Virus record (IMG/VR): IMGVR_UViG_3300033121_001335
Location: 1-64,000 of that record
From: a virus
Taxonomy: Duplodnaviria > Heunggongvirae > Uroviricota > Caudoviricetes
Length of the DNA stretch: 64,000 bases
Strand: one strand, 5' to 3'
The notes below the pieces were generated by a model, which was given only the letters and a program-made list of their open reading frames with translations, searched no databases and was not told where the DNA came from. This document shows, in pieces, positions 18,017-42,909 of the stretch (positions within the stretch are counted from its first letter, which is position 1; each line of letters starts with the position of its first letter). A program made the position numbers and the translations under genes.

Positions 18017-18022
18017 TTCTAT

Positions 18023-27235: not shown

Positions 27236-27442
27236 ATGGAACCATTTTGGATGACTTCTGATGGTGTTTTTATAACACCGAGTAGTATGGATAATGAACA
27301 CATAAAAAATACAATTAAATGCTTAAAGGGAGAAGGAAAATCAATAATTCCTGATAAATACCTTGGTTTAAAAAAAGAACGTTGGTTAGAAATATTTAAT
27401 AATGAAGTCTTAAAAAGGAATATTCCTTTAATATTTAATTAA
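27236..27442 (+). CDS. small protein, C-terminal PLIFN family member
   Basis: 68 aa ending NIPLIFN-stop. Confidence 0.5.
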   Translation: MEPFWMTSDGVFITPSSMDNEHIKNTIKCLKGEGKSIIPDKYLGLKKERWLEIFNNEVLKRNIPLIFN

Positions 27443-27452
27443 ATATATTATT

Positions 27453-27713
27453 ATGAAACTGAAAAAGCTTAAAAGTAAATTGCCATCGGAACAGTCAACT
27501 GCTCTTTTAAACGTTAAATATCCTCATATTAATTATATTTCTGGGGAAAATCTCAATTTACATGATGCTTTTCTTACAATGCTTAAAGGCATGTGGGTTG
27601 ACAAAATTAAATACCCCAGCATTAAGCACATGGAAAAAAGACTGAATATGACAGAAAGAGGCATTATCAGAGTGGCTAAACTGAATAATTTAGGAGAAAG
27701 AAAACATATTTAA
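27453..27713 (+). CDS. hypothetical small protein, possible HTH regulator or excisionase
   Basis: 86 aa. The C-terminal segment LNMTERGIIRVAKLNNLG looks like a helix-turn-helix. It is adjacent to int and the attP-like site. Confidence 0.3.
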   Translation: MKLKKLKSKLPSEQSTALLNVKYPHINYISGENLNLHDAFLTMLKGMWVDKIKYPSIKHMEKRLNMTERGIIRVAKLNNLGERKHI

Positions 27714-27932
27714 AACTTGAGTTATGACAATATTAACATTTCCCGTAGAAATGCAAGAAGATGTGTATAAAGTAACAGGGCAGCCAGCTCCGGATGAAGT
27801 TATTGATGTCACAGTAAAATTTAAAGAAACACTTTCCGATGAAGTGTTAGGATTATTAAAAGCTTTAGGTGTTCAAATCAGATTTATGACACCTGTAAAA
27901 TAAATGAATGGTTGTTTGACACTTATTTGACT

Positions 27933-27972
27933 ATATGTAAGACACGGGTTCGACTCCCGTCTGCTCCACCGG
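27933..27972 (+). mobile_element. attP-like core: a tRNA 3'-end fragment (T-arm plus acceptor 3' strand) with no matching 5' half
   Basis: acggg-TTCGACT-cccgt followed by ctgctcc-a-cc, which is a canonical T-stem, T-loop and acceptor 3' strand. No complementary ggagcag acceptor 5' strand or D-arm lies upstream. About 900 bp downstream of int in a 280-bp ORF-free stretch. Confidence 0.5.
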
Positions 27973-28127
27973 ATTAATATTGACCATTTATAGGCCGGGT
28001 AATTCCGGTGGGGCAGCTTGGCTTTGATTGCATATCAGTGGATAGGAATAGACTATTCAGTGTAATAAACGGCAAGAGAATTGCTATTGGTAGAACTGCA
28101 ATGAGAATTGCGGCCTAACAACGTATT

Positions 28128-28166
28128 GCCCCCCTGTATTTATACAGCGAAAAGGGGGCTTTTTTA
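28128..28166 (+). terminator. rho-independent terminator candidate
   Basis: gccccc(c)...gggggc stem with an internal palindrome ctgtatttatacag, followed by tttttt. Confidence 0.5.
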
Positions 28167-28185
28167 ATTATTTAAACTAAATTTT

Positions 28186-28449
28186 ATGAGTGATAATAAA
28201 TACATTGTAGAATGTTCTGATGAAGAAGAATGGGAAGCTGTTAAGGCTAAGGGAAATGTTGATTTGGGGAGCTATGAGGTGTATCAATATAGCTATCCAG
28301 AAGAACCTATAGCTATTGATGTTAATAATGGAGAATGAAGTAGGCTGAGTTATTACACTAACAAAAGGGGAGGAGAATATAGCGACTATAAGTTTATAAC
28401 AGCTCAAGAATATTTAAACCCTGTTTCTGAGCCTCTTCTATTTAATTAA
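28186..28449 (+). pseudogene. PLIFN-family member interrupted by an in-frame TGA (28336-28338). Either a pseudogene or a stop-codon readthrough/recoding candidate.
   Basis: The ATG at 28186 opens a frame that stops at TGA after 50 codons. The same frame then continues for 36 codons to ...SEPLLFN-stop, the family's C-terminal signature. Confidence 0.4.
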
Positions 28450-28611
28450 ATATAAAAACCATCTATAAACTAAATTTATGAAAAAGTTAAAAGCGGCACT
28501 ACTTATTACACTAGTTGTAACATTATTAACATTTCTTCATTCTTCGTGCAGTCCTTCTAGAAAAGATTGTAAGAATACGAAATATTACAAGCAAGGGGAG
28601 GGCTTATATTT

Positions 28612-28842
28612 ATGAAAACAGGTGATGTAGTTATAAGAACAGCAGATGAATTTATGGGAATGAAAAAAGGAGATTTAGCCACTGTAGTGTCATACAATCT
28701 AGAACTAAGTGGGTTAGCTGACATTACTCTTGAAGAATTTGCTGGTCAACATTCAAATAGTAGTTTAAGACTAGCAACACCTGAAGAAATACAAGCTAAG
28801 GGATTTGTGTTAAAAATAGCGGAACCATTGATGTTTAACTAA
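28612..28842 (+). CDS. small protein, C-terminal xP[LQ][IL]FN family (ends AEPLMFN). N-terminal KTGDVVI barrel-like module.
   Basis: 76-aa ORF. The terminal codons are ttg atg ttt aac taa. Confidence 0.5.
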   Translation: MKTGDVVIRTADEFMGMKKGDLATVVSYNLELSGLADITLEEFAGQHSNSSLRLATPEEIQAKGFVLKIAEPLMFN

Positions 28843-29136
28843 TTAAATATTCCCTGCCGTATTTAATAATTATTAAATAACATGATAATTTCATGGGGTG
28901 AATATGCAGGCCACAAGGCTATTTCTATAGCTCTTGTCTTTTTTTAACATTTAAAATTAAAAATTATGAAAAAAGCAATGTTTACGGATAAAATGGCCAG
29001 AGAATCATTTATATTTTCTCCTCCAGAAAAAAAGGATAAGAGATGTAGTAATAATAAAATATATTCTACACCAAAAATTAATGTAAAATCTGTTGCTAAA
29101 AAACAATCTTTAGGACTCAATTAAAAACACATTGCT

Positions 29137-29334
29137 ATGACAAATGGAAAAATTGATTCTTTTGTAGAGCAGCTGATAGAATTCGATAGTGCGTATACAC
29201 CTATACATTTATTAGAAATATGTTCTAATAAAGAAATCCTCAGAAAAACAGAAGATGAAAATCATAAAAAGAAGGATTGGGCTTTAATACAGGCATTTGG
29301 CACTATGGAATATTTTATATTTTGTAACAATTAA
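29137..29334 (+). CDS. hypothetical small protein
   Basis: 65-aa ORF ending FIFCNN, which is not the canonical family tail. Confidence 0.3.
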   Translation: MTNGKIDSFVEQLIEFDSAYTPIHLLEICSNKEILRKTEDENHKKKDWALIQAFGTMEYFIFCNN

Positions 29335-29361
29335 AATTAAATAAAAATTAAAAACAAAGTT

Positions 29362-29619
29362 ATGGGTACAACAACTAATGGAGTTTATGTAGGAGGGCGC
29401 TCTGAGAGGCGTTCTAAAGCTCGTCAGCAGCTTGAAAAACAATTAGAGCTTGGCACTAAACCAAGAAAAACTGGCGTTAAATGGTCTGATTATAAGCCTG
29501 AGGAGCTTATTTGGACAGTGCCGGAAAAACCAGATGAAAAGCCTAAACCAATCGCTGTTAAATTAACAGAATCAGACAAAAAAAGAATAAACAAAGAGTT
29601 GGAGGCTCTTTCAAAATGA
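29362..29619 (+). CDS. hypothetical basic protein
   Basis: 85-aa Lys/Arg-rich ORF followed by a terminator. Confidence 0.4.
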   Translation: MGTTTNGVYVGGRSERRSKARQQLEKQLELGTKPRKTGVKWSDYKPEELIWTVPEKPDEKPKPIAVKLTESDKKRINKELEALSK

Positions 29620-29675
29620 GAAAAATAGTCATATTAGGTTTTTAAATAAACATTTGTTGCAATATATAAACAAAA

Positions 29676-29702
29676 GCCTCTCTTTAATTAGAGGGGCTTT
29701 TT
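29676..29702 (+). terminator. rho-independent terminator
   Basis: gcctctct-ttaatt-agaggggc followed by ttttt. Confidence 0.6.
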
Positions 29703-29714
29703 AAATTTTAAAAC

Positions 29715-29954
29715 ATGAAAGCAAAAAATTTAAAAAAAGGACTTAATTATAGAATAACTAGGAGTAATCATTTAACAAGTCATTTTAAAAATAACACTGA
29801 AATCACGGTGAGTAATATAAAAAATGGTAGAATTTATTGGGAAGCAAAAAATGGTGATGAAGATGATTTTGATATGGGTTCTCAGGTGGATTACGAAACA
29901 GAATTTGAACTAATAACATCAAATTCTGAACAACATCCATTAATATTCAATTAA
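29715..29954 (+). CDS. small protein, PLIFN family (ends QHPLIFN)
   Basis: 79 aa. Terminal codons cca tta ata ttc aat taa. Confidence 0.5.
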   Translation: MKAKNLKKGLNYRITRSNHLTSHFKNNTEITVSNIKNGRIYWEAKNGDEDDFDMGSQVDYETEFELITSNSEQHPLIFN

Positions 29955-29959
29955 AAAAT

Positions 29960-30196
29960 ATGAAACAAAGCACTACACCCCTGTTCTTTAATTACGGCTC
30001 TACAGCTAAAATAAGAATAAAAAAGGAAAATTGTTATGAAAATCCTGATTATCCTTGCTTATATGGAATTGTAACTAAAAAGCTTTGTTTCACCCTTCCC
30101 AAAGCTGCTGTAATAATGACAAAAACTCATGTATATATTCCTAATGAAATATACAGACAAGCATTAACAAAATATTATCAAAATGTAAAACTATGA
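29960..30196 (+). CDS. hypothetical small protein
   Basis: 78-aa ORF without the family tail. Confidence 0.35.
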   Translation: MKQSTTPLFFNYGSTAKIRIKKENCYENPDYPCLYGIVTKKLCFTLPKAAVIMTKTHVYIPNEIYRQALTKYYQNVKL

Positions 30197-30453
30197 GCTA
30201 TGAATTAATAAGGAATCTTCCTAATAGCGGAATATTTTGGAAACTTACTAAAGAACAAGAGGATTGTCTAATAAGAATTCTTAAAAATAAGGGGTTAAGA
30301 ATAGGCTCAAAACAAGAAAAATCAACCGATTCCAATATAGCTTGGTATCCTAGTGGATATTGTAATTACATAAAGAACAAAACTTCTCTTTCCACTTATA
30401 AATTCACTGATTATTTCAGAGAGAGTATTTTTACACCCTTAATATTTAACTAA
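30193..30453 (+). CDS. small protein, PLIFN family (ends FTPLIFN)
   Basis: 86 aa. Terminal codons ccc tta ata ttt aac taa. Confidence 0.5.
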   Translation: MSYELIRNLPNSGIFWKLTKEQEDCLIRILKNKGLRIGSKQEKSTDSNIAWYPSGYCNYIKNKTSLSTYKFTDYFRESIFTPLIFN

Positions 30454-30696
30454 ATGAATATAAACAATTTACCAGAGGAACTGAGAGCTTTGGCTTTATT
30501 AAGAGCTGAAAAACCCTCACGTTATAAAAATTTTAATAAACATGATGAGAGGCTGAATTATATGTTTGATTGGCAGGGTAGCCTCGAAGGATACGGATTT
30601 TGGATGAGGGCTTATGACAGTAACTACACAACAGAAGACATTAATTATGCTGCTCATATTTTAAATATTGAATCATTCCCTCAAATCTTTAATTAA
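30454..30696 (+). CDS. small protein, PQIFN family (ends SFPQIFN)
   Basis: 80 aa. Its start abuts the previous stop. Confidence 0.5.
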   Translation: MNINNLPEELRALALLRAEKPSRYKNFNKHDERLNYMFDWQGSLEGYGFWMRAYDSNYTTEDINYAAHILNIESFPQIFN

Positions 30697-31037
30697 TGGA
30701 ATATAATAAGTTAACAGAAAAAGATGTAGGCAGATGTATATGTGTTTCCGATTCCACTGACTTTTTTATGATAGGATATGTTCATCCAGAATTTCATGTG
30801 GAAAATGATTCCGACACCACTGAATTTAGAGGAAAATTCACATATTATATATCGGCAGACAAAAAGTTTAGCAAAGATGCAATTTGGTGTTATGTGGCAA
30901 GTAGAAGGGGTTATAGAGAGGCCACTGAAAAACAGAAATATTGGCTTGATGTGTGTATTGCGGCTAATAAATATATACCCGAAAAAGAAGCTCTAAAAAA
31001 CTATAATTTAATTTCTGAACCACAAATTTTTAATTAA
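30696..31037 (+). CDS. small protein, PQIFN family (ends SEPQIFN)
   Basis: 113 aa. TAATG stop/start overlap at both ends. Confidence 0.5.
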   Translation: MEYNKLTEKDVGRCICVSDSTDFFMIGYVHPEFHVENDSDTTEFRGKFTYYISADKKFSKDAIWCYVASRRGYREATEKQKYWLDVCIAANKYIPEKEALKNYNLISEPQIFN

Positions 31038-31312
31038 TGGATTTAGCAGACATACAAATAGGGCAGTGGTATGCATCTAATAATAAAGAACAGCCTAATT
31101 ATCATTTTAAAGCATCAGAAATATATGTTAAGAGCAAAAAGGCTAAAGTGTTAAAAGTGGGACGTTGGAAACACCAGCCTGCTGGCTATGGCGAAATGTC
31201 AAATCCTGATTATTGGAGAAATGCCACCCCTGTAAACTATTTAAACATAGAACATCTCATACCAGATGAATTTAAAGAAAATAGAGAAACAGAGCCACTA
31301 TTATTTAATTAA
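31037..31312 (+). CDS. small protein, PLLFN family (ends TEPLLFN)
   Basis: 91 aa. Confidence 0.5.
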   Translation: MDLADIQIGQWYASNNKEQPNYHFKASEIYVKSKKAKVLKVGRWKHQPAGYGEMSNPDYWRNATPVNYLNIEHLIPDEFKENRETEPLLFN

Positions 31313-31323
31313 AACTATATAAT

Positions 31324-31608
31324 ATGAAACATAAATTACCATTTTATGTAGTGATAAGTCGGTCAGGACCTAATAATAGCGGCCATCCAAATTATAAAAC
31401 ATCAGCTATATATAAGGATGGACAACAATATTTTAAGGTGGTGGATATTTCTACAAATAAAGAACATGGTAACACTGAGAATCATGTAACATACATCACG
31501 GAGGATGGTTACCACTTGTGGAGTATGTGTGTTAATGAAGTGTCAGAACAAGAGTATATAACAAATAGGGGGCTTGAATTAATTCATGAACCTCAAATAT
31601 TCAATTAA
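31324..31608 (+). CDS. small protein, PQIFN family (ends HEPQIFN)
   Basis: 94 aa. Terminal codons cct caa ata ttc aat taa. Confidence 0.5.
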   Translation: MKHKLPFYVVISRSGPNNSGHPNYKTSAIYKDGQQYFKVVDISTNKEHGNTENHVTYITEDGYHLWSMCVNEVSEQEYITNRGLELIHEPQIFN

Positions 31609-31654
31609 GGAATCAATTTTTAATTATAAACAAACAAATCAAAAAACAAACAAA

Positions 31655-32119
31655 ATGGCAACAAAAAAGCAAGAAACAATCACAGCATTGACAGTACAAT
31701 CATCAGTTCCAGATGCTTTACAAGCAATTAATGCACGCATCGCAGCAATGAAACACATTCAGGAATGTGTGTATTTAACATCTGGTAAAATCACTACAGG
31801 CAGTGGTGGACAAAAGGATATTAAAGAAGAAAAGAATGTTACAGAATTAGTGAAGGCTTTTTCTGGTATTCTCTTCCGTGCCAAAGCCATCGAAGAAGCC
31901 TATGACGAATTAGGTATTGATTCATATCCAGCTGTAAAGGTGGATGGTGGTACAGTGGAAGAGTGGAAAAAAGACATTCTTCTCCGTATTGAAATCATCA
32001 ATCAAAAAGACACTCTGGATGAATTAAACAGCTTAAAGAAAGAGTGGGAAGATTTGATGGACAAAGAAGATAAGAAAGCAATGCTTGTGAAAAAAATGGA
32101 AAAATTCGCCAACGGCTGA
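31655..32119 (+). CDS. hypothetical protein. Start chosen at the internal ATG (MATKKQ...), because the 5' extension of the tracked ORF overlaps the previous gene.
   Basis: The ORF-track entry 31586-32119 overlaps the end of 31324-31608 in another frame. The in-frame ATG at 31655 follows an A-rich leader. Confidence 0.4.
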   Translation: MATKKQETITALTVQSSVPDALQAINARIAAMKHIQECVYLTSGKITTGSGGQKDIKEEKNVTELVKAFSGILFRAKAIEEAYDELGIDSYPAVKVDGGTVEEWKKDILLRIEIINQKDTLDELNSLKKEWEDLMDKEDKKAMLVKKMEKFANG

Positions 32120-32143
32120 TTTTTTTGTTGATTATTAAACTAA

Positions 32144-32179
32144 AGGGTGTGTAGTTTTTATAGCTGCACACCCTTTTTA
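32144..32179 (+). terminator. rho-independent terminator
   Basis: agggtgtg...cacaccct followed by ttttt. Confidence 0.6.
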
Positions 32180-32190
32180 AATTTTATTTT

Positions 32191-32451
32191 ATGAGAAATA
32201 TAATGGATTTTGATGGAAACAGAGAGCAAATAGCAGTTAATAACAATGAAGAGTTTAAAAAATTAATTCCAATTTTAAACCTAAGATTTAAAGGCTGGAA
32301 AGAAGGAATGGGAAGTGGGGATTATCCACTTTATATTATACTGGAGGGAGCATGGGATGGACATACAAACATTAAACAAATTCATAAAGCCGTAATACAA
32401 GCCTCAGAATATTATACAGAACAAGAATGTATTTCTAATATATTTAATTAA
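32191..32451 (+). CDS. small protein, family variant (ends CISNIFN)
   Basis: 86 aa. Confidence 0.45.
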   Translation: MRNIMDFDGNREQIAVNNNEEFKKLIPILNLRFKGWKEGMGSGDYPLYIILEGAWDGHTNIKQIHKAVIQASEYYTEQECISNIFN

Positions 32452-32464
32452 AACTCAGTGTTTT

Positions 32465-32734
32465 ATGGAAAAATGGTGTATTTTAAGAACCAAAGAAAAT
32501 TATATAGAACTTAACGATTGGTTTAATAAAAAGTATGGTTTAGAACTTTCAGACTGTAAAGGATATTTGCATTCTTATGTGGTGTCTCCTAATTGTGTTG
32601 TACCCTATTTAATGAGTATTTATAGCGATGGTCAAAGAGACAAAGAGGCCACAATAATAACAATAGAACAATTCAGAGAGCTAACGAAAGCTCCTGTTGA
32701 TAATAAAACTTTTGAGCCACAAATATTTAATTAA
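32465..32734 (+). CDS. small protein, PQIFN family (ends FEPQIFN)
   Basis: 89 aa. Confidence 0.5.
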   Translation: MEKWCILRTKENYIELNDWFNKKYGLELSDCKGYLHSYVVSPNCVVPYLMSIYSDGQRDKEATIITIEQFRELTKAPVDNKTFEPQIFN

Positions 32735-32740
32735 TGTATT

Positions 32741-33043
32741 ATGAGAATGAATGAATTAGAAATAGGAAATTATTATAAATCCATATGGGGTAGTGGAGAA
32801 CAATATGGTATTATAAGATATGACAATATGTTCACGGACATTAAGAGTAGTAATTATGTACATGATAATTATGTTTATTTAGGTTACAATAAAACCATAA
32901 CTGCTAAGGGGGATGGCAGCGGTGCCAGTAATGAATGGAAACCATGCACTGAAGAGGAAATAAGGATATTTGAAGACCAATTTGAAAAGCAGTTTGGCAA
33001 TAAAAAGAATAAAAAAGCATTTACGCCCTTAATATTTAACTAA
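32741..33043 (+). CDS. small protein, PLIFN family (ends FTPLIFN)
   Basis: 100 aa. Confidence 0.5.
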   Translation: MRMNELEIGNYYKSIWGSGEQYGIIRYDNMFTDIKSSNYVHDNYVYLGYNKTITAKGDGSGASNEWKPCTEEEIRIFEDQFEKQFGNKKNKKAFTPLIFN

Positions 33044-33199
33044 TTAAGGCCAATTATAGCACTCGTTTGAAATAAAACGTGAGGAAATAATAATCCAAGA
33101 TGCGTCCATAAATGCATTTGGACAAGGGTGCTTTTCATCATCCTATTTGGCCTGTGGTGCTATAAATTGGTTTTTTAATAAATTAAAAAATAAATTAAT

Positions 33200-33472
33200 A
33201 TGATAACAGAATTACCTAAAAAATGGGCAATAAGATGCACTCCAGAGAGTTCTAATTTTATAAATAAATTTTATCAAGACCATTTAAAAGAATATGAAGG
33301 TTGTAAGGGGAGATTTCCAGTAGTAATAGATGCATATTTACATTATCCTCAACATACATCAGCTTGTCATTCTAGAATGAATGGACCTGCTGAAAATTAT
33401 ACAGTGATTTCTTTTTTAGAATTTTGTACATTCGTGCTAAATCATTCAGACGAACCACAACTATTTAATTAA
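33200..33472 (+). CDS. small protein, PQLFN family (ends DEPQLFN). N-terminal LPKKWAI module.
   Basis: 90 aa. Confidence 0.5.
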   Translation: MITELPKKWAIRCTPESSNFINKFYQDHLKEYEGCKGRFPVVIDAYLHYPQHTSACHSRMNGPAENYTVISFLEFCTFVLNHSDEPQLFN

Positions 33473-33490
33473 CAAATAAAAACAAACAAA

Positions 33491-33718
33491 ATGAATCAGC
33501 AATTGACAAATTCCTATGCTCCAACACTATTTGGAAGTCCTAACATTATGGTTAAAACAGACTATAGTGTTTTTAAACAAACAGATGAGCAAAAGTCTGA
33601 TGCTATAGCAGCTAAATGGCAACATAAAATTTTTATGAATAAAAATGGCATTAATCCTAAAAAGCATCTAAACATCCCTATTTACAGACTTGAGCAATCT
33701 ATTAAATTTAGTACATAA
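33491..33718 (+). CDS. hypothetical small protein
   Basis: 75-aa ORF without the family tail. Confidence 0.35.
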   Translation: MNQQLTNSYAPTLFGSPNIMVKTDYSVFKQTDEQKSDAIAAKWQHKIFMNKNGINPKKHLNIPIYRLEQSIKFST

Positions 33719-33800
33719 TGACACCACACCATAAAAGAAAAATACATCCCATAGAACTGGTTGTTTCTATTATAGAGTTTGTGGGATTTTTATATTTATA

Positions 33801-34670
33801 TTGCTTATTAAAAACTATTTAAAAATGGAAAAAACTAATTATTTAGAAACGAAATATCAGGGGATTATTCCCTATCAAATAGAAGAAGGAAAAAAACATA
33901 TTACGTTAGCCCCCGGTGTATATCAACTTGGCTATTATGAAATTGCTCCTATGTGTATTGTTGACCACTTTATGCCATTAAAAGAGCAAGACAGTCTTAT
34001 AAGATTTAAAGATAGTGTTGTTGACGATGTAGTGAATAAGGTGGATAAATTCTTTTCTCAGAATAGTGTAGATGCCTATAAAGAATTAAAATTAGTGCAT
34101 AAAATGGGCATGATTATACATGGTCCTCATGGAACAGGTAAAACAAGTTCTGCTATGTTAGCCCTAAGAGCTATAGCTAAAAAATATGATGCTATATGTC
34201 TTGATTGTACGCCCAGAACTTTAAATAACTGTATAAACACTATAAAAAATATCAGACAGCACCAAAAAAATCCCATTATAATGTTTATGGATGAATTTGA
34301 GGTGGAAATGAGAGAAAGAGAGGAGCAGTGGCTGCCATTTTTAGATGGGACAGGAAGTTTTGAGAATTTTGTTTTTATAGCTTGCACCAATTATATAGAC
34401 AAAATTCCTGATAGGATAAAAGATAGAAAATCCAGAATTAAACACATTGTGGAAATTAAGGGACTGCCAATGGCTGTATATTCTGAATATATTAAAGACA
34501 GACTTCCAAATTTAAAATCTGAAGAGTTAGCCGAATTTGCTTTTAAAGCTGAAAATGAAAAATTGACTATTGACCAAGTGAAAAATGCTCTTATAGATTA
34601 CAGAATTGAGGGCTGGTCTATAGACAAGGCTATAAAGGTGGCAGCTTCTATAAAGGACGAATCTATTTAA
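33801..34670 (+). CDS. AAA+ ATPase
   Basis: Walker A (IIHGPHGTGKTSSAM), Walker B (IIMFMDEFE) and a sensor-like C-terminal region. Confidence 0.65.
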   Translation: MLIKNYLKMEKTNYLETKYQGIIPYQIEEGKKHITLAPGVYQLGYYEIAPMCIVDHFMPLKEQDSLIRFKDSVVDDVVNKVDKFFSQNSVDAYKELKLVHKMGMIIHGPHGTGKTSSAMLALRAIAKKYDAICLDCTPRTLNNCINTIKNIRQHQKNPIIMFMDEFEVEMREREEQWLPFLDGTGSFENFVFIACTNYIDKIPDRIKDRKSRIKHIVEIKGLPMAVYSEYIKDRLPNLKSEELAEFAFKAENEKLTIDQVKNALIDYRIEGWSIDKAIKVAASIKDESI

Positions 34671-34693
34671 TCAAAATTTGAAACTAAATTATT

Positions 34694-35203: not shown

Positions 35204-35228
35204 TAACATTTAATTAAAAACATCAGTT

Positions 35229-35483
35229 ATGGACGAATTATTAGAACAAGCACAAAAAGACTATCCTATAGGAACTAAATTTAAAGTGGCTCATATAGAC
35301 CACAATCCTTCTGAATATATTGTAGCTGGTGGTTGGAGGTGGGAAGATAATGAAAAAAGAGTCATTCTTTGTGATGTCGTTGGAAGCGCAACGGGCTATG
35401 CCCCCTGTCTTAAATACAAGAACACATGGGCTCCTATAATAGAATTAGGAAACATTATTTTCGAACCATTAATATTTAATTAA
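35229..35483 (+). CDS. small protein, PLIFN family (ends FEPLIFN)
   Basis: 84 aa. Confidence 0.5.
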   Translation: MDELLEQAQKDYPIGTKFKVAHIDHNPSEYIVAGGWRWEDNEKRVILCDVVGSATGYAPCLKYKNTWAPIIELGNIIFEPLIFN

Positions 35484-35484
35484 T

Positions 35485-35745
35485 ATGAAACATGAAAACT
35501 TTATAGTGCAAGTGAAGACTGAAGAAGAGTTTTTAAGTGTTCTCAAATCTATGGAACACTCGCTTCCAATTTTAACATATAGTTCACACAAAGATAGTTA
35601 TAAACAGTTTGTTCCACCCACTGGTGTGTATTATATAGGTGTTCATAATAATTCTGGGTGGTATAATGGCAGCTGTTCCTATCCCTTTATAACTTTTGAA
35701 GAATTTTTACAGAAAGAAAAATCCGAGTGTATAATATTTAATTAA
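35485..35745 (+). CDS. small protein, family variant (ends SECIIFN)
   Basis: 86 aa. Confidence 0.45.
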   Translation: MKHENFIVQVKTEEEFLSVLKSMEHSLPILTYSSHKDSYKQFVPPTGVYYIGVHNNSGWYNGSCSYPFITFEEFLQKEKSECIIFN

Positions 35746-35917
35746 ATTCTTTTATGAATATATGTACGAAAATCAAGCAGAGATTTAATGAGCTAAGGAT
35801 AAAAGGTAAAAAGAGTATAAAATTTGATAAAAAGGAAACAACAGAAAAGCAACTGGAAGAACTCAGAGAATGTGGATATACAGTAAAAGAAATTAATAAT
35901 AATATAATTATATCAGA

Positions 35918-36208
35918 ATGAAAACAATAGATTATGCTGCGGGAGACATAGTAGTGTGTTTGCGGGCTATAAAAGATAGGGGCGGTAAGCATAAACAGTC
36001 TAAATCGGTTATAAAAGACTATTTTTACAAATGCATTGGTGTATATAATCCCACTGTATATAATCCAAAAGAGGGTATCACTTGTGGATTAGACGGCTTT
36101 ACATTTATTCTTACAGCTTCTAGGTTTAGAAAGGCCACAGAAGAGGAGCTGTTATTATATAATTCAGGAGCTAAATCTATTAATGTACAATATATAATTT
36201 TTAATTAA
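35918..36208 (+). CDS. small protein, family variant (ends VQYIIFN)
   Basis: 96 aa. Confidence 0.45.
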   Translation: MKTIDYAAGDIVVCLRAIKDRGGKHKQSKSVIKDYFYKCIGVYNPTVYNPKEGITCGLDGFTFILTASRFRKATEEELLLYNSGAKSINVQYIIFN

Positions 36209-36474
36209 TGAATCAACATATAATGGAAAATCTAAAAAACGCTTTTATTCCCGGTGTAAAATTTAAAAGACACCCTAATCATGTAACTTGTCTTAAAGAC
36301 AAAATATACACTGTAGCTTCTCCACTTAGGATAGTCAGCGGGAACACTACAGAAGATTTAATGGTGTGTACAGTTGAAGAAGCTTATGTACATATATGCA
36401 ATAATGGAAAAGATTGGGCTACTATTCTAGAATCTAATCCTGTAATAAATGATAATCCCTTAATATTTAACTAA
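36208..36474 (+). CDS. small protein, PLIFN family (ends NDNPLIFN)
   Basis: 88 aa. Confidence 0.5.
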   Translation: MNQHIMENLKNAFIPGVKFKRHPNHVTCLKDKIYTVASPLRIVSGNTTEDLMVCTVEEAYVHICNNGKDWATILESNPVINDNPLIFN

Positions 36475-36863
36475 TGAGTAGTATAAAATTTAATCCAATA
36501 GAAAGATTTATAATAATAGAGCCTGTAATAGATGAAGTGTATTGGCTTCAGTTTTATGATGATAGGTCTAAAACTCAACCCACTGATTATTTATGGCTCA
36601 CTAGATGGGGAAAAGACGGAAACAATAAATTTTCAATATGTACATATCATAATGAAAAATATAAAAACAGTTGGTATTCTGAAGATGTTGCAATTTTTAC
36701 ATCTTCTATATCTGGTAATAGACATAATTTATATTTACCAAGAACAGAAGAACTAGTTTGGCACAGAGCAATGGAACTCATTGGAAAAACCAGTCCCGTT
36801 TCAAATATAGAAGAGTGGCTTAAAAAAACTACAATTAATAATGATATTTTAATATTTAATTAA
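36474..36863 (+). CDS. small protein, family variant (ends NNDILIFN)
   Basis: 129 aa. Confidence 0.45.
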   Translation: MSSIKFNPIERFIIIEPVIDEVYWLQFYDDRSKTQPTDYLWLTRWGKDGNNKFSICTYHNEKYKNSWYSEDVAIFTSSISGNRHNLYLPRTEELVWHRAMELIGKTSPVSNIEEWLKKTTINNDILIFN

Positions 36864-37093
36864 TGGGAAATAAGGCAGATGAGGCTAAAGATGCCATAGA
36901 TGAGCTTCTTAAAGAAAAAGAAAGCGAAATAGAAGATTTACAATCAGAACTAGATGATATGACATCAGAAAAAGATGATTTACAAGAGCAATTGGATGAA
37001 TATAAAGAAGAAAATAAGAATCTAAAAGATATTATAGAAGCATTAGAAAACAAAATTAAACAATTAACAGCTATTCCTCATATATTTAATTAA
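36863..37093 (+). CDS. small acidic coiled-coil protein, family member (ends AIPHIFN)
   Basis: 76 aa. Confidence 0.5.
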   Translation: MGNKADEAKDAIDELLKEKESEIEDLQSELDDMTSEKDDLQEQLDEYKEENKNLKDIIEALENKIKQLTAIPHIFN

Positions 37094-37095
37094 TT

Positions 37096-37299
37096 ATGAA
37101 ACAATCAAAAGGCGTATTAATAACAGAATTAATAGTGACACTATTTCTGATGATAAGTTATATATGGTTGTGTTTATCAGATGAAGCCTCTGGGGGAATA
37201 TCCACAATGGTAGTTTGGTTTGTAGGATATATAACAATATTAGATAAAATTACTAAATTTGTAACATGGAATTTTGACCCCCAAAATTATAAAATATGA
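37096..37299 (+). CDS. small membrane protein (two transmembrane helices)
   Basis: Hydrophobic segments LITELIVTLFLMISYIWLCL and MVVWFVGYITIL. Confidence 0.35.
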   Translation: MKQSKGVLITELIVTLFLMISYIWLCLSDEASGGISTMVVWFVGYITILDKITKFVTWNFDPQNYKI

Positions 37300-37874
37300 A
37301 TAAATTTAACTGGTTGAAAAGCTTTTTTAGTCCTTTTAAAAGACCCAAAATTAAATTATATATAGGAAAGACGACTATAGGCACTCCCTATTTTCTTCCT
37401 AGAAAATGGGTTAAAATACCAAAAGAAGAAGTTATAAAACAAGCCAAAGAAAAATATGATAAGTGTCCTAAAGAATATCAAACTTTGCATCATTATAACA
37501 GTTTATTAAATTGTTGTAAAGGGATGAAACAGCCTATTTCAAAGAAAATAGGATTTGATTTTGTGGGGTTGGGGTGGAAAACTAAATTTGGCGATTACAG
37601 ACACGAGTGGAATCCTGTATGGAGCTTTGTCTTTTTTAGGTGGCAAATAGCCATACAATTTATCCCTATTCATGATATGCATTATTGGGAAGCTTGGCTA
37701 TATTATGAATTAGACACAGACAAAAGATGTAATAAAATGGAGAGGATTGATATGTGTTTAAAAAAGGCCCCCCAAATTTGGACTAGCTATAATAAAGATG
37801 GTAGTAAAACCACCACTAATTATTACACTAAAATACTGAAAAAGAAATATTTAAAACTGATAAAAAATGAGTGA
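37296..37874 (+). CDS. hypothetical protein
   Basis: 192-aa ORF. Confidence 0.4.
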   Translation: MNKFNWLKSFFSPFKRPKIKLYIGKTTIGTPYFLPRKWVKIPKEEVIKQAKEKYDKCPKEYQTLHHYNSLLNCCKGMKQPISKKIGFDFVGLGWKTKFGDYRHEWNPVWSFVFFRWQIAIQFIPIHDMHYWEAWLYYELDTDKRCNKMERIDMCLKKAPQIWTSYNKDGSKTTTNYYTKILKKKYLKLIKNE

Positions 37875-38607
37875 AATAATAGCAATCGGTGATACACATG
37901 GCAGGGCTCTTTGGAAAGATGTTGTTGAAAAGCATAAAAATGCAGATAAAATAGTGTTGATTGGAGATTATTTTGATACACATGACGACATTTCTCCAGA
38001 ACTTCAAATGATAAATTTTAGGGAAATTTGTCAGTATAAAGAAGCTCATAAAGAACAAATTGTTCTGCTTATAGGTAATCATGATGAGCACTATTTTCCA
38101 TTTATGGGAAATTCTGGTACATCTGGATTTAATGCAGGAGCTGCTCCAGCAATAGGACACTTATTAATGACATACAAAGACCTGTTACAAATGGCTCATT
38201 ATGAGGATAATATATTATTTACCCATGCTGGTGTAGGAGAAACATGGTTTAATGCTAATATTCCCGAAATAAAAGAAGAATGGAGCGCTAAATATATGTC
38301 AGACAGCATTAATGATGTATGGAAATATAAACCTCTTTCTTTTAAATTTAACGGTTGGAGAGATTCATCGGGGGACGAAATAGGACAAACACCAATATGG
38401 ATAAGACCCAGAGCTTTATTACAAGACACTAAAAATATGAGAAAAGCTGGAATTATTCAAATAGTTGGACATACGCAGGTGACTAAAATTGATGTAGAGG
38501 GTAGTAAGAAAAATACAGGAGGGAAACTGTTTATGATAGATGCTCTGGGTACATCCGGAGAATATTTAGTTATTAAAGATGGAGAATTTATTGTTAAAAA
38601 ATGCTAA
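37867..38607 (+). CDS. Ser/Thr protein phosphatase, calcineurin-like metallophosphoesterase (PP-lambda type)
   Basis: Motifs GDTHGR, GDYFD and GNHDEHY. Confidence 0.7.
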   Translation: MSEIIAIGDTHGRALWKDVVEKHKNADKIVLIGDYFDTHDDISPELQMINFREICQYKEAHKEQIVLLIGNHDEHYFPFMGNSGTSGFNAGAAPAIGHLLMTYKDLLQMAHYEDNILFTHAGVGETWFNANIPEIKEEWSAKYMSDSINDVWKYKPLSFKFNGWRDSSGDEIGQTPIWIRPRALLQDTKNMRKAGIIQIVGHTQVTKIDVEGSKKNTGGKLFMIDALGTSGEYLVIKDGEFIVKKC

Positions 38608-38610
38608 AAT

Positions 38611-38907
38611 ATGAAATATAGTAAAGAATTAAATGGTGTGTACCACGCTAAAAATCATACATATACATATCTGGTAGAATTTAATAATGGAATTAGTGGA
38701 TGTGGATTAAAGAATGGCAATAATGCTAGAGATAATAATTTTGATGTATTTTTTACCACTTCTGATTTTAATAAAAATTCAGATGGTTATGACTACGTTT
38801 TAGCAGATGAACGCCATACAAATTGGCTGAAATCATGTAAGAAAATAGGAAAATTTACATTAGAAATAAAACAAATAGAATTGGTGGAACCATTATTATT
38901 TAATTAA
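38611..38907 (+). CDS. small protein, PLLFN family (ends VEPLLFN)
   Basis: 98 aa. Confidence 0.5.
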   Translation: MKYSKELNGVYHAKNHTYTYLVEFNNGISGCGLKNGNNARDNNFDVFFTTSDFNKNSDGYDYVLADERHTNWLKSCKKIGKFTLEIKQIELVEPLLFN

Positions 38908-38920
38908 AACAAGAAAAATT

Positions 38921-39283
38921 ATGAAAGAAGAAAAAATTATTGATAAAACAAAAAATTCAATAAACACCTTACATCCCTACAGATTAGCAAATGACTTATG
39001 GGTTTATGATGATGAAGATTTGGGGGTTTATAGCGAAGCCTTCGTTATGGGTAGTTCTGAGGTAATAAATCATCTGGTAGGTATGGAATGTGATAAATTT
39101 ACTATGTTTATATCTGCACAACCTATACCAGAATATGATGCACATTTAGTAAAAATTAAGGGGGATGGCAGTGAGGGCTGGTATCAATTACAAGGTACTG
39201 GAATGGAGCATTGGCTATGTGGGCAGGTGCTGGCTTATTTCCCAGATTATCCTTCAGACATATATGTGAAGTTGAAAAAATAA
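38921..39283 (+). CDS. hypothetical protein
   Basis: 120-aa ORF. Confidence 0.4.
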   Translation: MKEEKIIDKTKNSINTLHPYRLANDLWVYDDEDLGVYSEAFVMGSSEVINHLVGMECDKFTMFISAQPIPEYDAHLVKIKGDGSEGWYQLQGTGMEHWLCGQVLAYFPDYPSDIYVKLKK

Positions 39284-39332
39284 ATTTGGATAAAAGTAAT
39301 AAAATATACGCATTAATTAAAGTTTAATAAAT

Positions 39333-40202
39333 ATGGCAAAATTTAAAAAGGGTGACATAGTAGTTCTTAAAAAAGACTCTGAATATTATATCCCCAAAGC
39401 CCCAAAATATAGTAGTAATCCAATTCATACAGAAGGAGTTATTACTTCAGTAAGTTCAGGAGAATTTGGCATTCAAGTAAAATGGAATAACAACACTACA
39501 AATGGTTATTCTTTTAAAGATTTAGAATTATTCAATCAAAAAACAGAAAAAATGGCAACAAGAAAAACAACAACAAAACAATTTCAATTAGAAGCCGGAC
39601 AGTATTTTACAGCTACTTATGGCAAGAAAAAGGTGAGAGGAGTGGTGGCGGACGCACCAGATGATTACGATAATTTTGTATTATATGGAAAAGATTTTGA
39701 TGATGATGCCGAAGATGATGACGCAGAATTTAGCACACAATTATACATCGATATGTATGGGAGGGAGGACCAAAGTCACACAGATGTGTTAAAAGACTAC
39801 GGAATTACTAATTTTGTTTTATTAACAGATAAGAGACAAAAGGCTATTGTTGATGGAGATAAATGCCTAACTGTAGCGGGACATAAAGTGCATATTAAGG
39901 GTAATTTCGTAAATTTTGGGTGTGGCGCTGTTAGCACCACTAAAAAAGAAATAAAAGACTTTTATGCAGTGTATAAGGATGTAGATGTAAATGAGCATAT
40001 GCGTTATAAAGAGTTGATAGACGAAATAGGCGAAACAGCATTTGAAGAGGCTGTAGCTTTTTATAATCAATTCAAAATGTACACTACAGCTCAGCAAAAG
40101 GCATTTAATAATCTTGTAAAAGAAATGGATAATGCTGACAATGTACTCTTAGAAGATTTGAATAGGAAAGAAGTGGATGAATTAATGAAGAAATTAGACT
40201 AA
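39333..40202 (+). CDS. hypothetical protein with the N-terminal FKKGDIVVL small-barrel-like module
   Basis: 289-aa ORF followed by a terminator. Confidence 0.45.
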   Translation: MAKFKKGDIVVLKKDSEYYIPKAPKYSSNPIHTEGVITSVSSGEFGIQVKWNNNTTNGYSFKDLELFNQKTEKMATRKTTTKQFQLEAGQYFTATYGKKKVRGVVADAPDDYDNFVLYGKDFDDDAEDDDAEFSTQLYIDMYGREDQSHTDVLKDYGITNFVLLTDKRQKAIVDGDKCLTVAGHKVHIKGNFVNFGCGAVSTTKKEIKDFYAVYKDVDVNEHMRYKELIDEIGETAFEEAVAFYNQFKMYTTAQQKAFNNLVKEMDNADNVLLEDLNRKEVDELMKKLD

Positions 40203-40212
40203 AAATAAAAAA

Positions 40213-40238
40213 AGAGGGGAGAAATTCCCTCTTTTTTC
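40213..40238 (+). terminator. rho-independent terminator
   Basis: agaggggagaaattccctct followed by tttttc. Confidence 0.55.
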
Positions 40239-40246
40239 TTAAATTT

Positions 40247-42181
40247 GTGCCTATGTTAGAAAATAATGTATATATATTTGATATTGAAGGTGATGGTTTG
40301 CTTTCTACTATTACGAAAATTCATTGCGTTTGTGCATATAACATAAAAACCAGAGAAGCTGTACAATTGACTAATTATCAAGAAATTGAACAATTTTTTT
40401 CTGACGAAAAAGCCACTTTTATAGGACATAATATTATACGTTTTGACATTCCGGCATTAAAAAAGATAATAAAGGTAGAAATAAGGGGTGATGTAATTGA
40501 TACACTAGCAATATCGTGGGTGTTAGAAGAAAACAGAAAAAATCATGGATTGGGGAGCTACGGAGAGGAGTTTAATATAAAAAAACCAGAAATAAAAGAT
40601 TGGAACAGCCTTACAGTAGAGGAATACATTCATAGGTGCTCCGAAGATGTAAAAATAAACACCACTTTATGGAACAGGCAAATAAAATATTTAAAACAAG
40701 TTTATTATCAAGATGATAAGAATTTATATAGGTGGTTTAAATATCTGAGATTTAAACTAGAGTGTGTGTATGAACAAGAAACTGAGGGGCTGAGATTAGA
40801 TGTTAATAAAGCTAAAAAGCACTTTAATGAGCTCTCTATTCTTAAAGAGGAAAAAATCAAAGAATTAGAAGCTGCTATGCCTAGAGTAGCCATTAAAAAA
40901 AAGAGGGTGTATAAAGATGCTGTAAAAGATAGTAATGGTAATGTTTTTGAAAAGGGTGACCTGTTTTATAATTCTCAACCTATTAGCAGGAAAAAAGAAG
41001 AAATAATAGAAGAAAAAATCATAGGTTGGAAAGAGCCTAATGCTAATAGTCATGTTCAGATAAAGAATTGGTTATACAATTTAGGTTGGATACCACAAAA
41101 TATACAGCATAAAAGAAATAAAAAAACTGGTGAGATAAAACTTATTCCTCAAATAAAAAGCCAATTTGAAATAGGAGAAATATGTGATAGTGTTAAATTA
41201 CTATTTAAAAAAGAACCAAAATTAGAGGCTTTAGGAGGATTGTCGGTGCTTACCCATCGTATTAGTATATTTGAAGGATTCATATCCGATGAGGAAAATG
41301 GACGCATATATCCCTCTATGAATGGTTTAACTAACACCCTGCGTCTTAAACATAGGGTAATTGTCAATCTACCTAGGGCTGGGAGGGCGTATGGGGAGGA
41401 CATTAGGGGGTGTTTAATAGCTGATGAAGGATGCATTTTATGTGGAAGTGATTTAAGCGGTATAGAGGATAGCACTAAAAGACATTTTATATATGATTAT
41501 GACCCTGAATATGTAAAAAGTATGGACACTCCGGGGTATGACCCCCATTTAGAGCTCGCTGTATTGGCAAAATTTATGACCAAAGAGGATGCTGATTGGT
41601 ATAAGGAAGAATCCAAAAAACGTAAAGATGAAGCCTATAAAGCCTCTACAGAAGACAATCAGAGGTTTACAGCTTTAACAGCTAAAAGGTATGTGGCTAA
41701 AACTACTAACTTTGCAGCAACATATAAAGTAGGAGCTAAGGCCTTAAGTGTATATCCCGGTATTAATTTAGGAATGAAGGAAGCAAAGAGGGTAATAGAT
41801 ACATATTGGAAAAGAAATAAGGCTATTTTGGACGTAGAAAATAGTTTAAATGTCAAAGAGGTATATGGGCAAAAATGGCTTTTTAATCCTGTTAGTAGAT
41901 TTTGGTATACATTAAGGGCTGATAAAGATAGATTTAGTACATTAAATCAGAGTACGGCTGTATTTGTATTTGATAAGTGGCTTACAGAAATTAAAAAAGC
42001 TGGTGTTAAAATACCATTCCAATACCATGATGAAATAGGATTTAATGTTAAAAAAGAGAAAAAAAGAGAAAATACAGCGATTATTAAACAAGCCATACAA
42101 ACTGTTAACGACAAATTAAAACTAAATATAACAATAGGATGCAGTGTTGATTATGGTAAAAAATATAGTGATATACATTAA
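40247..42181 (+). CDS. DNA polymerase, family A (Pol I-like), with an N-terminal 3'-5' exonuclease domain
   Basis: Exo I-like YIFDIEGDGL at the N-terminus. Pol A motif B-like RYVAKTTNFAATYKVGAKAL and motif C QYHDE. Confidence 0.65.
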   Translation: MPMLENNVYIFDIEGDGLLSTITKIHCVCAYNIKTREAVQLTNYQEIEQFFSDEKATFIGHNIIRFDIPALKKIIKVEIRGDVIDTLAISWVLEENRKNHGLGSYGEEFNIKKPEIKDWNSLTVEEYIHRCSEDVKINTTLWNRQIKYLKQVYYQDDKNLYRWFKYLRFKLECVYEQETEGLRLDVNKAKKHFNELSILKEEKIKELEAAMPRVAIKKKRVYKDAVKDSNGNVFEKGDLFYNSQPISRKKEEIIEEKIIGWKEPNANSHVQIKNWLYNLGWIPQNIQHKRNKKTGEIKLIPQIKSQFEIGEICDSVKLLFKKEPKLEALGGLSVLTHRISIFEGFISDEENGRIYPSMNGLTNTLRLKHRVIVNLPRAGRAYGEDIRGCLIADEGCILCGSDLSGIEDSTKRHFIYDYDPEYVKSMDTPGYDPHLELAVLAKFMTKEDADWYKEESKKRKDEAYKASTEDNQRFTALTAKRYVAKTTNFAATYKVGAKALSVYPGINLGMKEAKRVIDTYWKRNKAILDVENSLNVKEVYGQKWLFNPVSRFWYTLRADKDRFSTLNQSTAVFVFDKWLTEIKKAGVKIPFQYHDEIGFNVKKEKKRENTAIIKQAIQTVNDKLKLNITIGCSVDYGKKYSDIH

Positions 42182-42183
42182 TT

Positions 42184-42375
42184 ATGGAAAACTTAAAATT
42201 AGACATATTCAAAAAACAAGAAAGCGCCTACTATCCTATACATTCAAAGAACTATTGTTGGAAGGGAATATTTGAATATTTAATGTGGTATAAGGTGGAA
42301 GAAAAAACAACATTAATTAGTGTGGGAACTAAAGGACTTTTAGCCTTTAATATTCCTGCTTTTTGTTTAAATTAA
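42184..42375 (+). CDS. hypothetical small protein
   Basis: 63-aa ORF. Confidence 0.3.
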   Translation: MENLKLDIFKKQESAYYPIHSKNYCWKGIFEYLMWYKVEEKTTLISVGTKGLLAFNIPAFCLN

Positions 42376-42381
42376 TAAATT

Positions 42382-42618
42382 ATGGAAAAGAAAATAGCAG
42401 TGTATTGTCCCACCCCAGAAATATTTGAATTAGTTGCTAGCAAAATTAATTGGCCTCATGGGAATATTTGGTCTAACTACCAAGAACGTACTGTAGTAGA
42501 CATTTCTCTTAAACAATATTGTAATAGAGAATATTATGAAAATAAAAAAGAAAAATATAATATACTCACCTATAGTGAATGGATTGGTGAGGATGGGGAT
42601 GTATTAATTTTTAATTAA
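42382..42618 (+). CDS. small protein, family variant (ends GDVLIFN)
   Basis: 78 aa. Confidence 0.45.
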   Translation: MEKKIAVYCPTPEIFELVASKINWPHGNIWSNYQERTVVDISLKQYCNREYYENKKEKYNILTYSEWIGEDGDVLIFN

Positions 42619-42624
42619 AAAATT

Positions 42625-42909
42625 ATGGAAAAATTACCAGAAAAATGGTTTATTAACCCAACCAATGAAAATGAGAGCATGGCTGTATCAAATTGGTTTG
42701 CCCAATATAGAAAATACTCAAAAGGATGTGAAGAATCATATAATTGGTATTTTCCGGCTTATGAAAATAGTGGAGAATTACAATTTTGTTATACACACGG
42801 AAAAGTAAAAGGCAATTTAATGGATGGCTACGAACAAATAACGTTTTCTCAATTTAAACAATACGTTCTAGAAGAAAATGATATTTTTACTCCCTTAATA
42901 TTTAATTAA
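42625..42909 (+). CDS. small protein, PLIFN family (ends IFTPLIFN). N-terminal LPEKWFI module.
   Basis: 94 aa. Confidence 0.5.
   Translation: MEKLPEKWFINPTNENESMAVSNWFAQYRKYSKGCEESYNWYFPAYENSGELQFCYTHGKVKGNLMDGYEQITFSQFKQYVLEENDIFTPLIFN

Follow-up and report, generated by a model that had tools for sequence, protein, structure and literature searches.

An in-step, genome-specific C-terminal tail on unrelated small proteins of crAss-like phages

Introduction

Why should some twenty small phage proteins with unrelated bodies end in nearly the same peptide? The question is raised by the window, a stretch of 64,000 nucleotides from an uncultured, distantly crAss-like phage (positions 1 to 64,000 of IMG/VR record IMGVR_UViG_3300033121_001335), in which many open reading frames (ORFs) between 27236 and 42909 close with a tail of the type [E/T]-P-[L/Q]-I-F-N. 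Phage genomes consist in large part of small genes whose function is unknown and for which there is rarely a handle, and a literature search, which did not cover all journals, returned no description of such tails. Here we report that the tail is selected as a peptide and not merely as a DNA motif, and that the finding is far broader than the window: tails occur in a large group of uncultured crAss-like phages, with 5-25 tailed proteins per genome. The tag is found across the whole clade in genome-specific versions, and homologous proteins from different genomes differ accordingly in their tails.

Results

One tail on many unrelated small proteins

Among plus-strand ORFs of at least 40 aa, 21 intact ones (68-129 aa) end in ..FN and stop with TAA. 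All lie within 27236-42909, and the plus strand of the window holds no further comparable FN-ending ORF outside this region. From the amino-acid composition of the window ORFs, 0.48 FN endings would be expected among 161 ORFs (P(>=21) = 8e-28), and P[LQ][IL]FN stands at a C-terminus in 14 cases and nowhere inside a protein. The shared C-terminal tail that the original prediction had described on unrelated small proteins is therefore real, but its count of 22 intact ORFs came down to 21. The additional interrupted ORF stood: a 22nd tail, SEPLLFN (stop at 28447-28449), closes a frame that is broken by an in-frame change from TGG to TGA at 28336-28338. The same ORF is intact (87 aa, Trp codon TGG) in the related loci L024 (3629-3892) and L025, and because TGA is the normal stop of many other window genes, the change has the appearance of a nonsense mutation or polymorphism, not of recoding. 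A further TTTAATTAA at 35209, with only 20 open codons upstream, looks like chance, and the two FN-ending ORFs on the minus strand (35738-35992 and 23502-23687) are taken as chance, too.

The tails follow the consensus hydrophobic-x-[E/T]-P-[L/Q]-I-F-N-COOH, with a hydrophobic residue at -7, E or T at -5, P at -4 (17/22), L or Q at -3, I or L at -2, F at -1 and N at 0; N also stands at -9 in 9/22. The last residue is Asn in every tail of this genome. With the last 7 aa cut, blastp found a single similar pair of bodies (33200/42625, E 7e-6), and Pfam and PHROG scans of the bodies revealed no family in common. Each is a small single-domain protein, and tailed proteins in general are small (median 89 aa, 5th-95th percentile 71-126 aa). 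The proposed TAATG overlap with the next gene exists in only some cases; the gap from the tail stop to the next start runs from -1 to 156 nt. A structural model of the tail protein encoded at 30696-31037 was uninformative (pLDDT 48). The individual tail ORFs are as follows.

27236-27442, plus strand: 68 aa, NIPLIFN-TAA; L024 orthologue NFLLIFN; dN/dS 0.23
28186-28449, plus strand: interrupted by TGA 28336-28338, SEPLLFN-TAA
28612-28842, plus strand: 76 aa, AEPLMFN; homologous bodies L030_7428, L030_7690 (LIFN), L031_8335 (FYQIY)
29715-29954, plus strand: 79 aa, QHPLIFN; F codon TTC
30193-30453, plus strand: 86 aa, FTPLIFN; non-homologous tail genes in the same slot of L014 and L026
30454-30696, plus strand: 80 aa, SFPQIFN; L014 orthologue (51% aa identity) ends CPPLLFN
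30696-31037, plus strand: 113 aa, SEPQIFN; homologous bodies L030_8633 (LLIFN), L031_7274 (NYQIY), L034_272 (DDYSLTF)
31037-31312, plus strand: 91 aa, TEPLLFN; L024 variant EIEALLFN
31324-31608, plus strand: 94 aa, HEPQIFN
32191-32451, plus strand: 86 aa, CISNIFN; L030 homologue ends PEVLIFN
32465-32734, plus strand: 89 aa, FEPQIFN; homologues L031_9289 and L031_9533 end YQIY
32741-33043, plus strand: 100 aa, FTPLIFN; orthologues differ synonymously (TTA/CTA, ACA/ACG)
33200-33472, plus strand: 90 aa, DEPQLFN; paralogue of 42625
35229-35483, plus strand: 84 aa, FEPLIFN; L024/L025 orthologue CCG CTA ... TAG; homologues in L034 (DDYELYN) and L035 (DDYSLY)
35485-35745, plus strand: 86 aa, SECIIFN
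35918-36208, plus strand: 96 aa, VQYIIFN; dN/dS 0.09
36208-36474, plus strand: 88 aa, NDNPLIFN
36474-36863, plus strand: 129 aa, NDILIFN
36863-37093, plus strand: 76 aa, coiled-coil body, AIPHIFN
38611-38907, plus strand: 98 aa, VEPLLFN; present in L026, not in L024 or L025
42382-42618, plus strand: 78 aa, GDVLIFN; homologue L035_939 ends DDYELTF
42625-42909, plus strand: 94 aa, FTPLIFN; paralogue of 33200

The tail follows the genome, not the protein

Close relatives were collected by exact-sequence look-up and comprise near-identical loci (L024-L029) and loci with about 50-90% aa identity (L014-L023). All of these keep the tails, with occasional changes of P to A, P to L, Q to L and I to L. 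An IMG/VR scan with the DNA pattern for EP[LQ]IFN and stop gave 12 single matches, none with a tail array. More distant relatives were reached via the AAA ATPase of the window (41-51% identity) or via the protein encoded at 31655-32119, and here the tails take other forms. In the range of loci from L045 to L074, the types are INNYxI[YF], FPIY, FYIR, FIFNI and LFNIDDL.

L030: x-[P/Y]-L-I-F-N, 19 ORFs
L036: [Y/F]-I-P-[L/Q/I]-I-F-N, 5 ORFs
L037: P-[E/L]-F-[L/I]-N, 8 ORFs
L031: [N/G]-Y-Q-I-Y, 11 ORFs
L040: E-[T/N/S]-Y-[K/Q/T]-I-F, 7 ORFs
L041: N-N-Y-E-I-Y, 2 ORFs
L034 and L035: N-x-D-D-Y-[S/E/Q]-L-T-F (also DDYELYN, DDYSLY), 9 and 7 ORFs
Many metagenome contigs: [E/Q]-[I/V]-I-N-x-Y-x-I-[Y/F], no tally
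L063: N-D-[L/M]-F-P-I-Y, 3 ORFs
L064: N-F-Y-I-R, 6 ORFs
L045: P-E-F-I-F-N-I, 3 ORFs
L074: L-F-N-I-[D/E]-D-L, 3 ORFs

Across the lineages, the tails have a common core, [Y/P]-x-[I/L/F], followed by 1-6 residues, and in most sister lineages the final residue is Y, F, R, I or L instead of Asn. The bodies are homologous between lineages even without the last 8 aa (E 1e-9 to 1e-16), yet their tails follow their own genome. Protein families without a tail are tail-less in every lineage seen. Such a change in step across many unrelated proteins is expected if the tails of a genome are all under one shared constraint.

Some tail proteins also have relatives inside larger proteins. The ~75-aa N-terminal domain (MAKFKKGDIVV..) of a tail-less 289-aa protein (39333-40202) is homologous to free-standing tail proteins in L030 (4975-5211 and 5223-5444) and L031 (7575-7802), which means that some tail proteins are single-domain versions of domains in larger proteins.

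A conserved protein in the middle of the array

One conserved phage gene is linked in its occurrence to the tails, and its product is itself tail-less.

31655-32119, plus strand: conserved tail-less protein, 154 aa, mid-array; start at 31586 in the ORF list

It is the best conserved gene of the region (54-75% identity, 17 aligned homologues). Loci reached via the AAA gene were sampled blind to it, and the tail-bearing ones with enough sequence were counted: 4/4 (window, L030, L031, L034) have a homologue inside the array. Among the tail-less loci reached in the same way (L032, L033, L078, L079), 0/4 have one within 10 kb. In the tree of the AAA protein (neighbour-joining, star-like, with weak resolution), tail-bearing and tail-less lineages are interspersed. 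Longer loci fetched via homologues of the 154-aa protein mostly show tails, and its family comprises 840 clusters at 50% identity (E <= 1e-3) among 1.84 billion representatives from public metagenomes. The tag system is thus probably widespread in environmental crAss-like phages.

The AlphaFold model of the protein (pLDDT 78) has three helices, of which the last is ~50 residues long, and a small sheet. In the representative search, one 240-aa protein (P0086) consists of an upstream tail gene (..VIVNNYQI) fused to the conserved 150-aa protein. The fusion probably reflects the loss of a stop or an error in gene calling, and it confirms the adjacency of the two genes in another lineage. Among the proteins encoded by the phage, the 31655-32119 product is thus the best candidate for a tail partner, but the link is correlative.

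A shared docking tag as the preferred reading

The 'shared recognition tag' of the original prediction is still the best reading, and the homologous bodies with different, genome-specific tails strengthen it. We tentatively favour, at somewhat less than even confidence, a form in which the tail is a short linear docking tag. Within a genome, a single partner would read it on every tagged protein, and the binding site of this partner would drift along with the tag. The tail may dock as an extended strand onto the surface of this partner. In the INNYxIY type, the last residue and positions -1, -3 and -5 are conserved, with -2 and -4 variable, and this alternation together with the terminal aromatic residue fits one face of an extended strand on a surface. 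The 31655-32119 product might act as a hub, holder or chaperone of the tagged proteins. The tail DNA also offers ~18 nt of in-frame microhomology at which bodies appear to be swapped and the tag is kept, which we regard as a by-product. A stricter version seems doubtful to us, as does the 31655-32119 product as the specific partner: a private addressing system in which a genome-specific peptide code marks a changing set of 5-25 small accessory proteins for one dedicated receptor, with that product as candidate. The receptor would gather, hold or hand over these proteins during host takeover, and new genes would join the set by recombining ahead of an existing tail.

Several observations weigh against the docking reading. 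The distance from core to carboxyl end varies between lineages (1-6 residues), which is unusual for motifs anchored by the carboxylate. The co-occurrence sample is small (4 + 4 loci) and could be explained by shared ancestry of one module; loci that were fetched via the 31655-32119 protein contain it by design and cannot speak to its absence. The copies of this protein in L063 and L064 are almost the same, but the tails of the two loci differ at two positions (FPIY vs FYIR). Searches with its model gave no convincing match among solved structures, but generic helical matches and uncharacterised Bacillus phage proteins. The 'early' status of the tail genes is judged only from their position. 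Finally, there is a bias at the nucleotide level: in the tails of the window, L030, L031, L034-L037, L040 and L041, TTA makes up 81% of the Leu codons, compared to 37% in gene bodies and 50% over the final six codons of other genes, and TAA makes up 91% of the stops, compared to 59% in other genes. This enrichment had been overlooked in the original prediction. In the tails of L030, moreover, AAC makes up 11/23 Asn codons, compared to 19% genome-wide.

The AAA ATPase was considered as a tail receptor or unfoldase and rejected. Its translation shows no aromatic pore loop in the stretch from Walker A (GPHGTGKT) to Walker B (IIMFMDEFE), and the protein is present in four tail-less relatives, which makes it an unlikely reader of the tails.

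The same two facts about the sole AAA protein in the array count against the leading rival, a degron, which we consider unlikely. Here, the tail would pass the small proteins on to an AAA+ protease of the host or the phage (such as ClpXP, Lon or FtsH), either to give the set a common short lifetime or to deliver bound host targets for destruction. The tails are indeed exposed hydrophobic or aromatic C-termini on small proteins, and the flexible distance from core to carboxyl end suits a degron. There is also some resemblance of ..N-N-Y-x-I-Y to the ssrA end ..N-Y-A-L-A-A and of ..L-I-F-N to the SulA end ..N-L-Y-H, which is recognised by Lon. On the other hand, known protease degrons do not need the specificity of a precise motif of 7-9 residues that keeps its polar positions (I-N-x-Y-x-I-Y), is uniform in one genome and changes between related phages, and no tail ends in Ala-Ala, the hallmark of ssrA and ClpX.

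Less probable still, and to our mind improbable, is that the tails recognise each other, pairing as short beta-strand zippers so that the tagged proteins co-assemble without a separate receptor. Self-recognition predicts uniformity within a genome and divergence between genomes, and N, Q, Y, I and F with alternating hydrophobic residues are strand-prone and resemble known zipper hexapeptides. However, 5-9 residues are very short for specific assembly, acidic and polar residues and Pro stand before the core, and strict co-occurrence with a conserved extra protein is not predicted.

The tail is conserved as a peptide

A third alternative turns the argument around: the conserved element could be a boundary sequence in DNA or RNA (a recombination junction or a translation/termination context), with the peptide as a passenger. 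It draws on the way in which gene bodies are exchanged. Among close relatives, the genes that replace each other in one slot have unrelated bodies, but all carry the tail. In comparisons of the window with L026 and L015, the point at which homology sets in again coincides with the first tail codons (window 30434 = L026 961; window 30440 = L015 1001), a breakpoint pattern missed in the original prediction, and three unrelated window genes have a nearly identical stretch of ~28 nt encoding FTPLIFN. Gene bodies thus seem to be swapped ahead of a kept tail. Besides the TTA and TAA enrichment, the AT content of the last 18 nt is raised (0.80 vs 0.73), the common TTAATATTTAATTAA holds TAA in three frames and usually includes the TTAATTAA palindrome, and a tyrosine recombinase gene (26216-27046) lies directly upstream of the array.

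Nevertheless, the pattern of conservation makes this alternative very unlikely. All 22 tails use one reading frame, although TTAATATTTAATTAA would be open to termination in three, and no copy of the motif was found in other frames, non-coding DNA or ORF interiors of the window, so that the motif is not equally common in non-coding contexts, a possibility that the original prediction had itself raised. Third codon positions are the least conserved: the information at positions 1/2/3 is 1.17/1.40/0.90 bits for 45 distinct tails and 1.23/1.31/0.92 bits for 93. In the 12 nt after the stop, it drops to 0.34-0.5 bits; conservation ends at the stop codon. Orthologous tails differ by synonymous changes (CCA TTA to CCG CTA, TTG to CTC) and swap their stops (TAA to TAG or TGA). 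Within one genome of the DDYSLTF lineage, Ser is encoded by AGT, TCA or TCC and Leu by TTA, CTC or CTG. In sister lineages (tail DNA TAT CAA ATT TAT TAA or GAT GAT TAT GAA TTA ACA TTT TAA), the peptide pattern is shared and the palindrome is not. Tail codons for P, I, F, N and E match genome usage, and the tail genes are under purifying selection (dN/dS mostly 0.1-0.45). The claim of the original prediction that selection acts on the peptide rather than only on DNA, made from synonymous codon variation that is indeed present in the tails, is thus borne out by the fixed frame, the third-position variation and the synonymous changes between orthologues.

A role as promoter or terminator was rejected, since sigma-70-like promoter matches are not enriched at the tails and the hairpins lie elsewhere (29672, 32142, 40208); the spacing to the next start is variable as well. 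An integron-like model was likewise rejected, because nothing is conserved after the stop and the recombinase is not a constant neighbour. It is also present in L025, but L024, otherwise 94-98% identical, has an unrelated gene of 220 aa instead (1866-2528), and no tyrosine recombinase was found in other tail-bearing loci. The TTA and TAA bias may reflect AT-rich unstructured junctions in packed operons, or recent Leu codons derived from Ile, Phe or Val neighbours; neither explains it fully.

The last alternative, that a ThiF-family protein encoded in the window (55788-56516) adenylates or conjugates the C-terminal Asn as MccB does on MccA, takes up the E1 substrate end of the original prediction; the presence of this protein and the invariant Asn of this genome speak for it. 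It is hardly credible, since tails of most sister lineages keep the rest of the motif but have Y, F, R, I or L as their last residue; the protein (242 aa, Pfam match at residues 22-153) also lies 13 kb away from the array, and a scan for its relatives, as a check on co-occurrence with tails, found none.

Source phage and genome context

The main features of the gene content of this uncultured, distantly crAss-like phage are listed here.

5619-7178, minus strand: major capsid protein, distant crAss-type (PF23898)
0.4-17.6 kb, minus strand: structural module
26216-27046: tyrosine recombinase
27-43 kb, plus strand: tail genes, in the same block as replication genes
33801-34670: AAA ATPase
40247-42181: family A DNA polymerase
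55788-56516: ThiF-family protein

A metallophosphatase, DnaB-like and DEAD helicases, a primase-like protein and RecA are also encoded. Strong hairpins of terminator type, with 12-15 bp stems and a T run behind them, at 29672-29701, 32142-32176 and 40208-40237 divide the small-gene region into blocks; the second is located directly 3' of the conserved 154-aa gene. A nucleotide search with the window found no match among GenBank phages, and cultured relatives of the PolA, AAA and capsid proteins are distant or absent, so that none of the cultured phages is close. The genome scan for a host returned a single, probably mis-binned contig in an archaeal metagenome-assembled genome.

Some neighbouring genes are worth recording. 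The ThiF/E1-family protein is flanked by three proteins of 360-430 aa without a Pfam or NCBIfam match (neighbours 53388-57603), and the JAB protein named in the original prediction was not seen among the scanned window proteins. A 315-aa protein (48901-49848) adjoining an AAA_24 (Sak4-like) gene ends in SDSDDDY, an acidic run, and its L035 homologue ends in ENADY; the protein is possibly SSB-like, with the acidic end as a docking tail. Among the tail-less loci, L078 contains an intein-containing DnaB-like gene (16435-18030, PF14890) and L079 a fragment resembling a class II (His) tRNA synthetase (6329-6967).

Discussion

One short peptide links about 20 small proteins of each genome to a common step; over the sampled loci, the number of distinct proteins exceeds 150. 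The tails are a natural example of a short linear motif that changes in step across a whole protein set, and they suggest a simple way to recruit new genes, in-frame exchange ahead of a conserved tail. A private addressing system, if true, would add a new class of modular organisation to the phage genes whose function is unknown, and the tail peptide (e.g. KNYNLISEPQIFN-COOH) would be a handle for pulling the whole set together with its hub from infected cells. With a synthetic tail peptide, or with tails exchanged between lineages, it should be possible to find the partner and to see whether the specificity is private to each genome.

Comparison with known systems

With the E1-substrate comparison set aside, the tails fail the defining features of every known sequence or context family that we tested. 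In the MccA/MccB case, a co-encoded E1-like enzyme of the MccB type, with a peptide-binding domain, acts on an invariant C-terminal Asn; in this genome the Asn is invariant and a ThiF-family protein is present, but the residue is absent in most sister lineages.

Repeated boundary DNA is known from phage hyperplastic regions as T4-type promoter/stem-loop cassettes (PeSL-like intergenic repeats, conserved as DNA whatever the frame) and lambdoid linker sequences, and integron attC sites are imperfect inverted repeats of 55-140 nt after each cassette, with an IntI-type integrase adjoining. Like these, the array consists of small unrelated genes on the same strand with a conserved sequence after each and an exchange of bodies at this point. 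In contrast, the conserved part is coding, in frame, 15-27 nt long, ends at the stop and varies synonymously. It differs from the cassettes in lying inside the ORF, with neither promoter nor hairpin at the tails, and from integrons in lacking both an inverted-repeat site behind the stop and a constant recombinase neighbour.

The ssrA degron, which confers rapid proteolysis, is a C-terminal ..Y-A-L-A-A, of which the Ala-Ala-COOH is needed for ClpX. It is likewise an exposed C-terminal peptide for a common machine, with a partial resemblance in N-Y-x-[L/I], but the tails are encoded in the genes rather than added and are lineage-specific, and in none of the lineages does a tail end in AA.

The T4 capsid targeting sequence (N-terminal, cleaved, on internal proteins) and the C-terminal cargo-loading peptides of encapsulins share with the tails the principle of one short terminal peptide on unrelated proteins of one genome, directed to one receptor surface. 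They act on few proteins, which are located inside the shell and encoded with or near its genes, and their motif is unrelated. The tail genes are found among the replication genes, on the strand opposite to the capsid module.

Replication hub motifs offer another parallel. The C-terminal tip of SSB (D-D-D-I-P-F) is an Asp run with [I/L]-P-F behind it at the free end, the beta-clamp-binding motif is Q-L-[S/D]-L-F (a penta- or hexapeptide with Gln at position 1 and Leu-Phe or Leu-x-Leu at positions 4-5, which binds a hydrophobic cleft of the sliding clamp), and T7 gp2.5 and gp4 have acidic tails ending in Phe. All are short exposed peptides, mostly C-terminal, with a hydrophobic or aromatic end and acidic residues ahead of it, by which unrelated proteins dock onto one partner, and the tail genes are interleaved with replication genes. 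The known motifs are near-constant across bacteria and occur on few enzymes with known roles, whereas here 5-25 small proteins per genome carry a tag that differs between related phages, and there is no match in sequence. The window tails lack an acidic run, and their last residue is Asn; only the N-x-D-D-Y-x-L-T-F type of L034/L035 is loosely similar to the SSB tip. With respect to the clamp motif, the tails read [E/T]-P-[L/Q]-I-F-N and have Q in just 5/22, directly before I-F. The sliding clamp, proposed in the original prediction, is an unlikely reader, since classical QxxLF-type ends, different from the tails, are found on other, large proteins of related genomes. These are homologous proteins of 661-686 aa downstream of the AAA gene that end in NQTSLF (L033 15636-17663), NQLTLF (L034 11454-13439), NQIKLF (L035 5223-7283) and NQISLF (L078 11016-13043).

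The 31655-32119 product invites one more comparison. It has no Pfam, PHROG or SecB family match and no SecB-like fold, which sets it apart from the chaperones of toxin-antitoxin-chaperone systems. The chaperone-addiction (ChAD) element of these systems is read by a dedicated SecB-like chaperone (bioRxiv 10.1101/2024.02.24.581848), with one client per system, compared to ~20 here. The likeness is that a short extension makes a small protein depend on a co-encoded small binding protein, and this fits the idea that the 31655-32119 product could be the holder of the tailed proteins.

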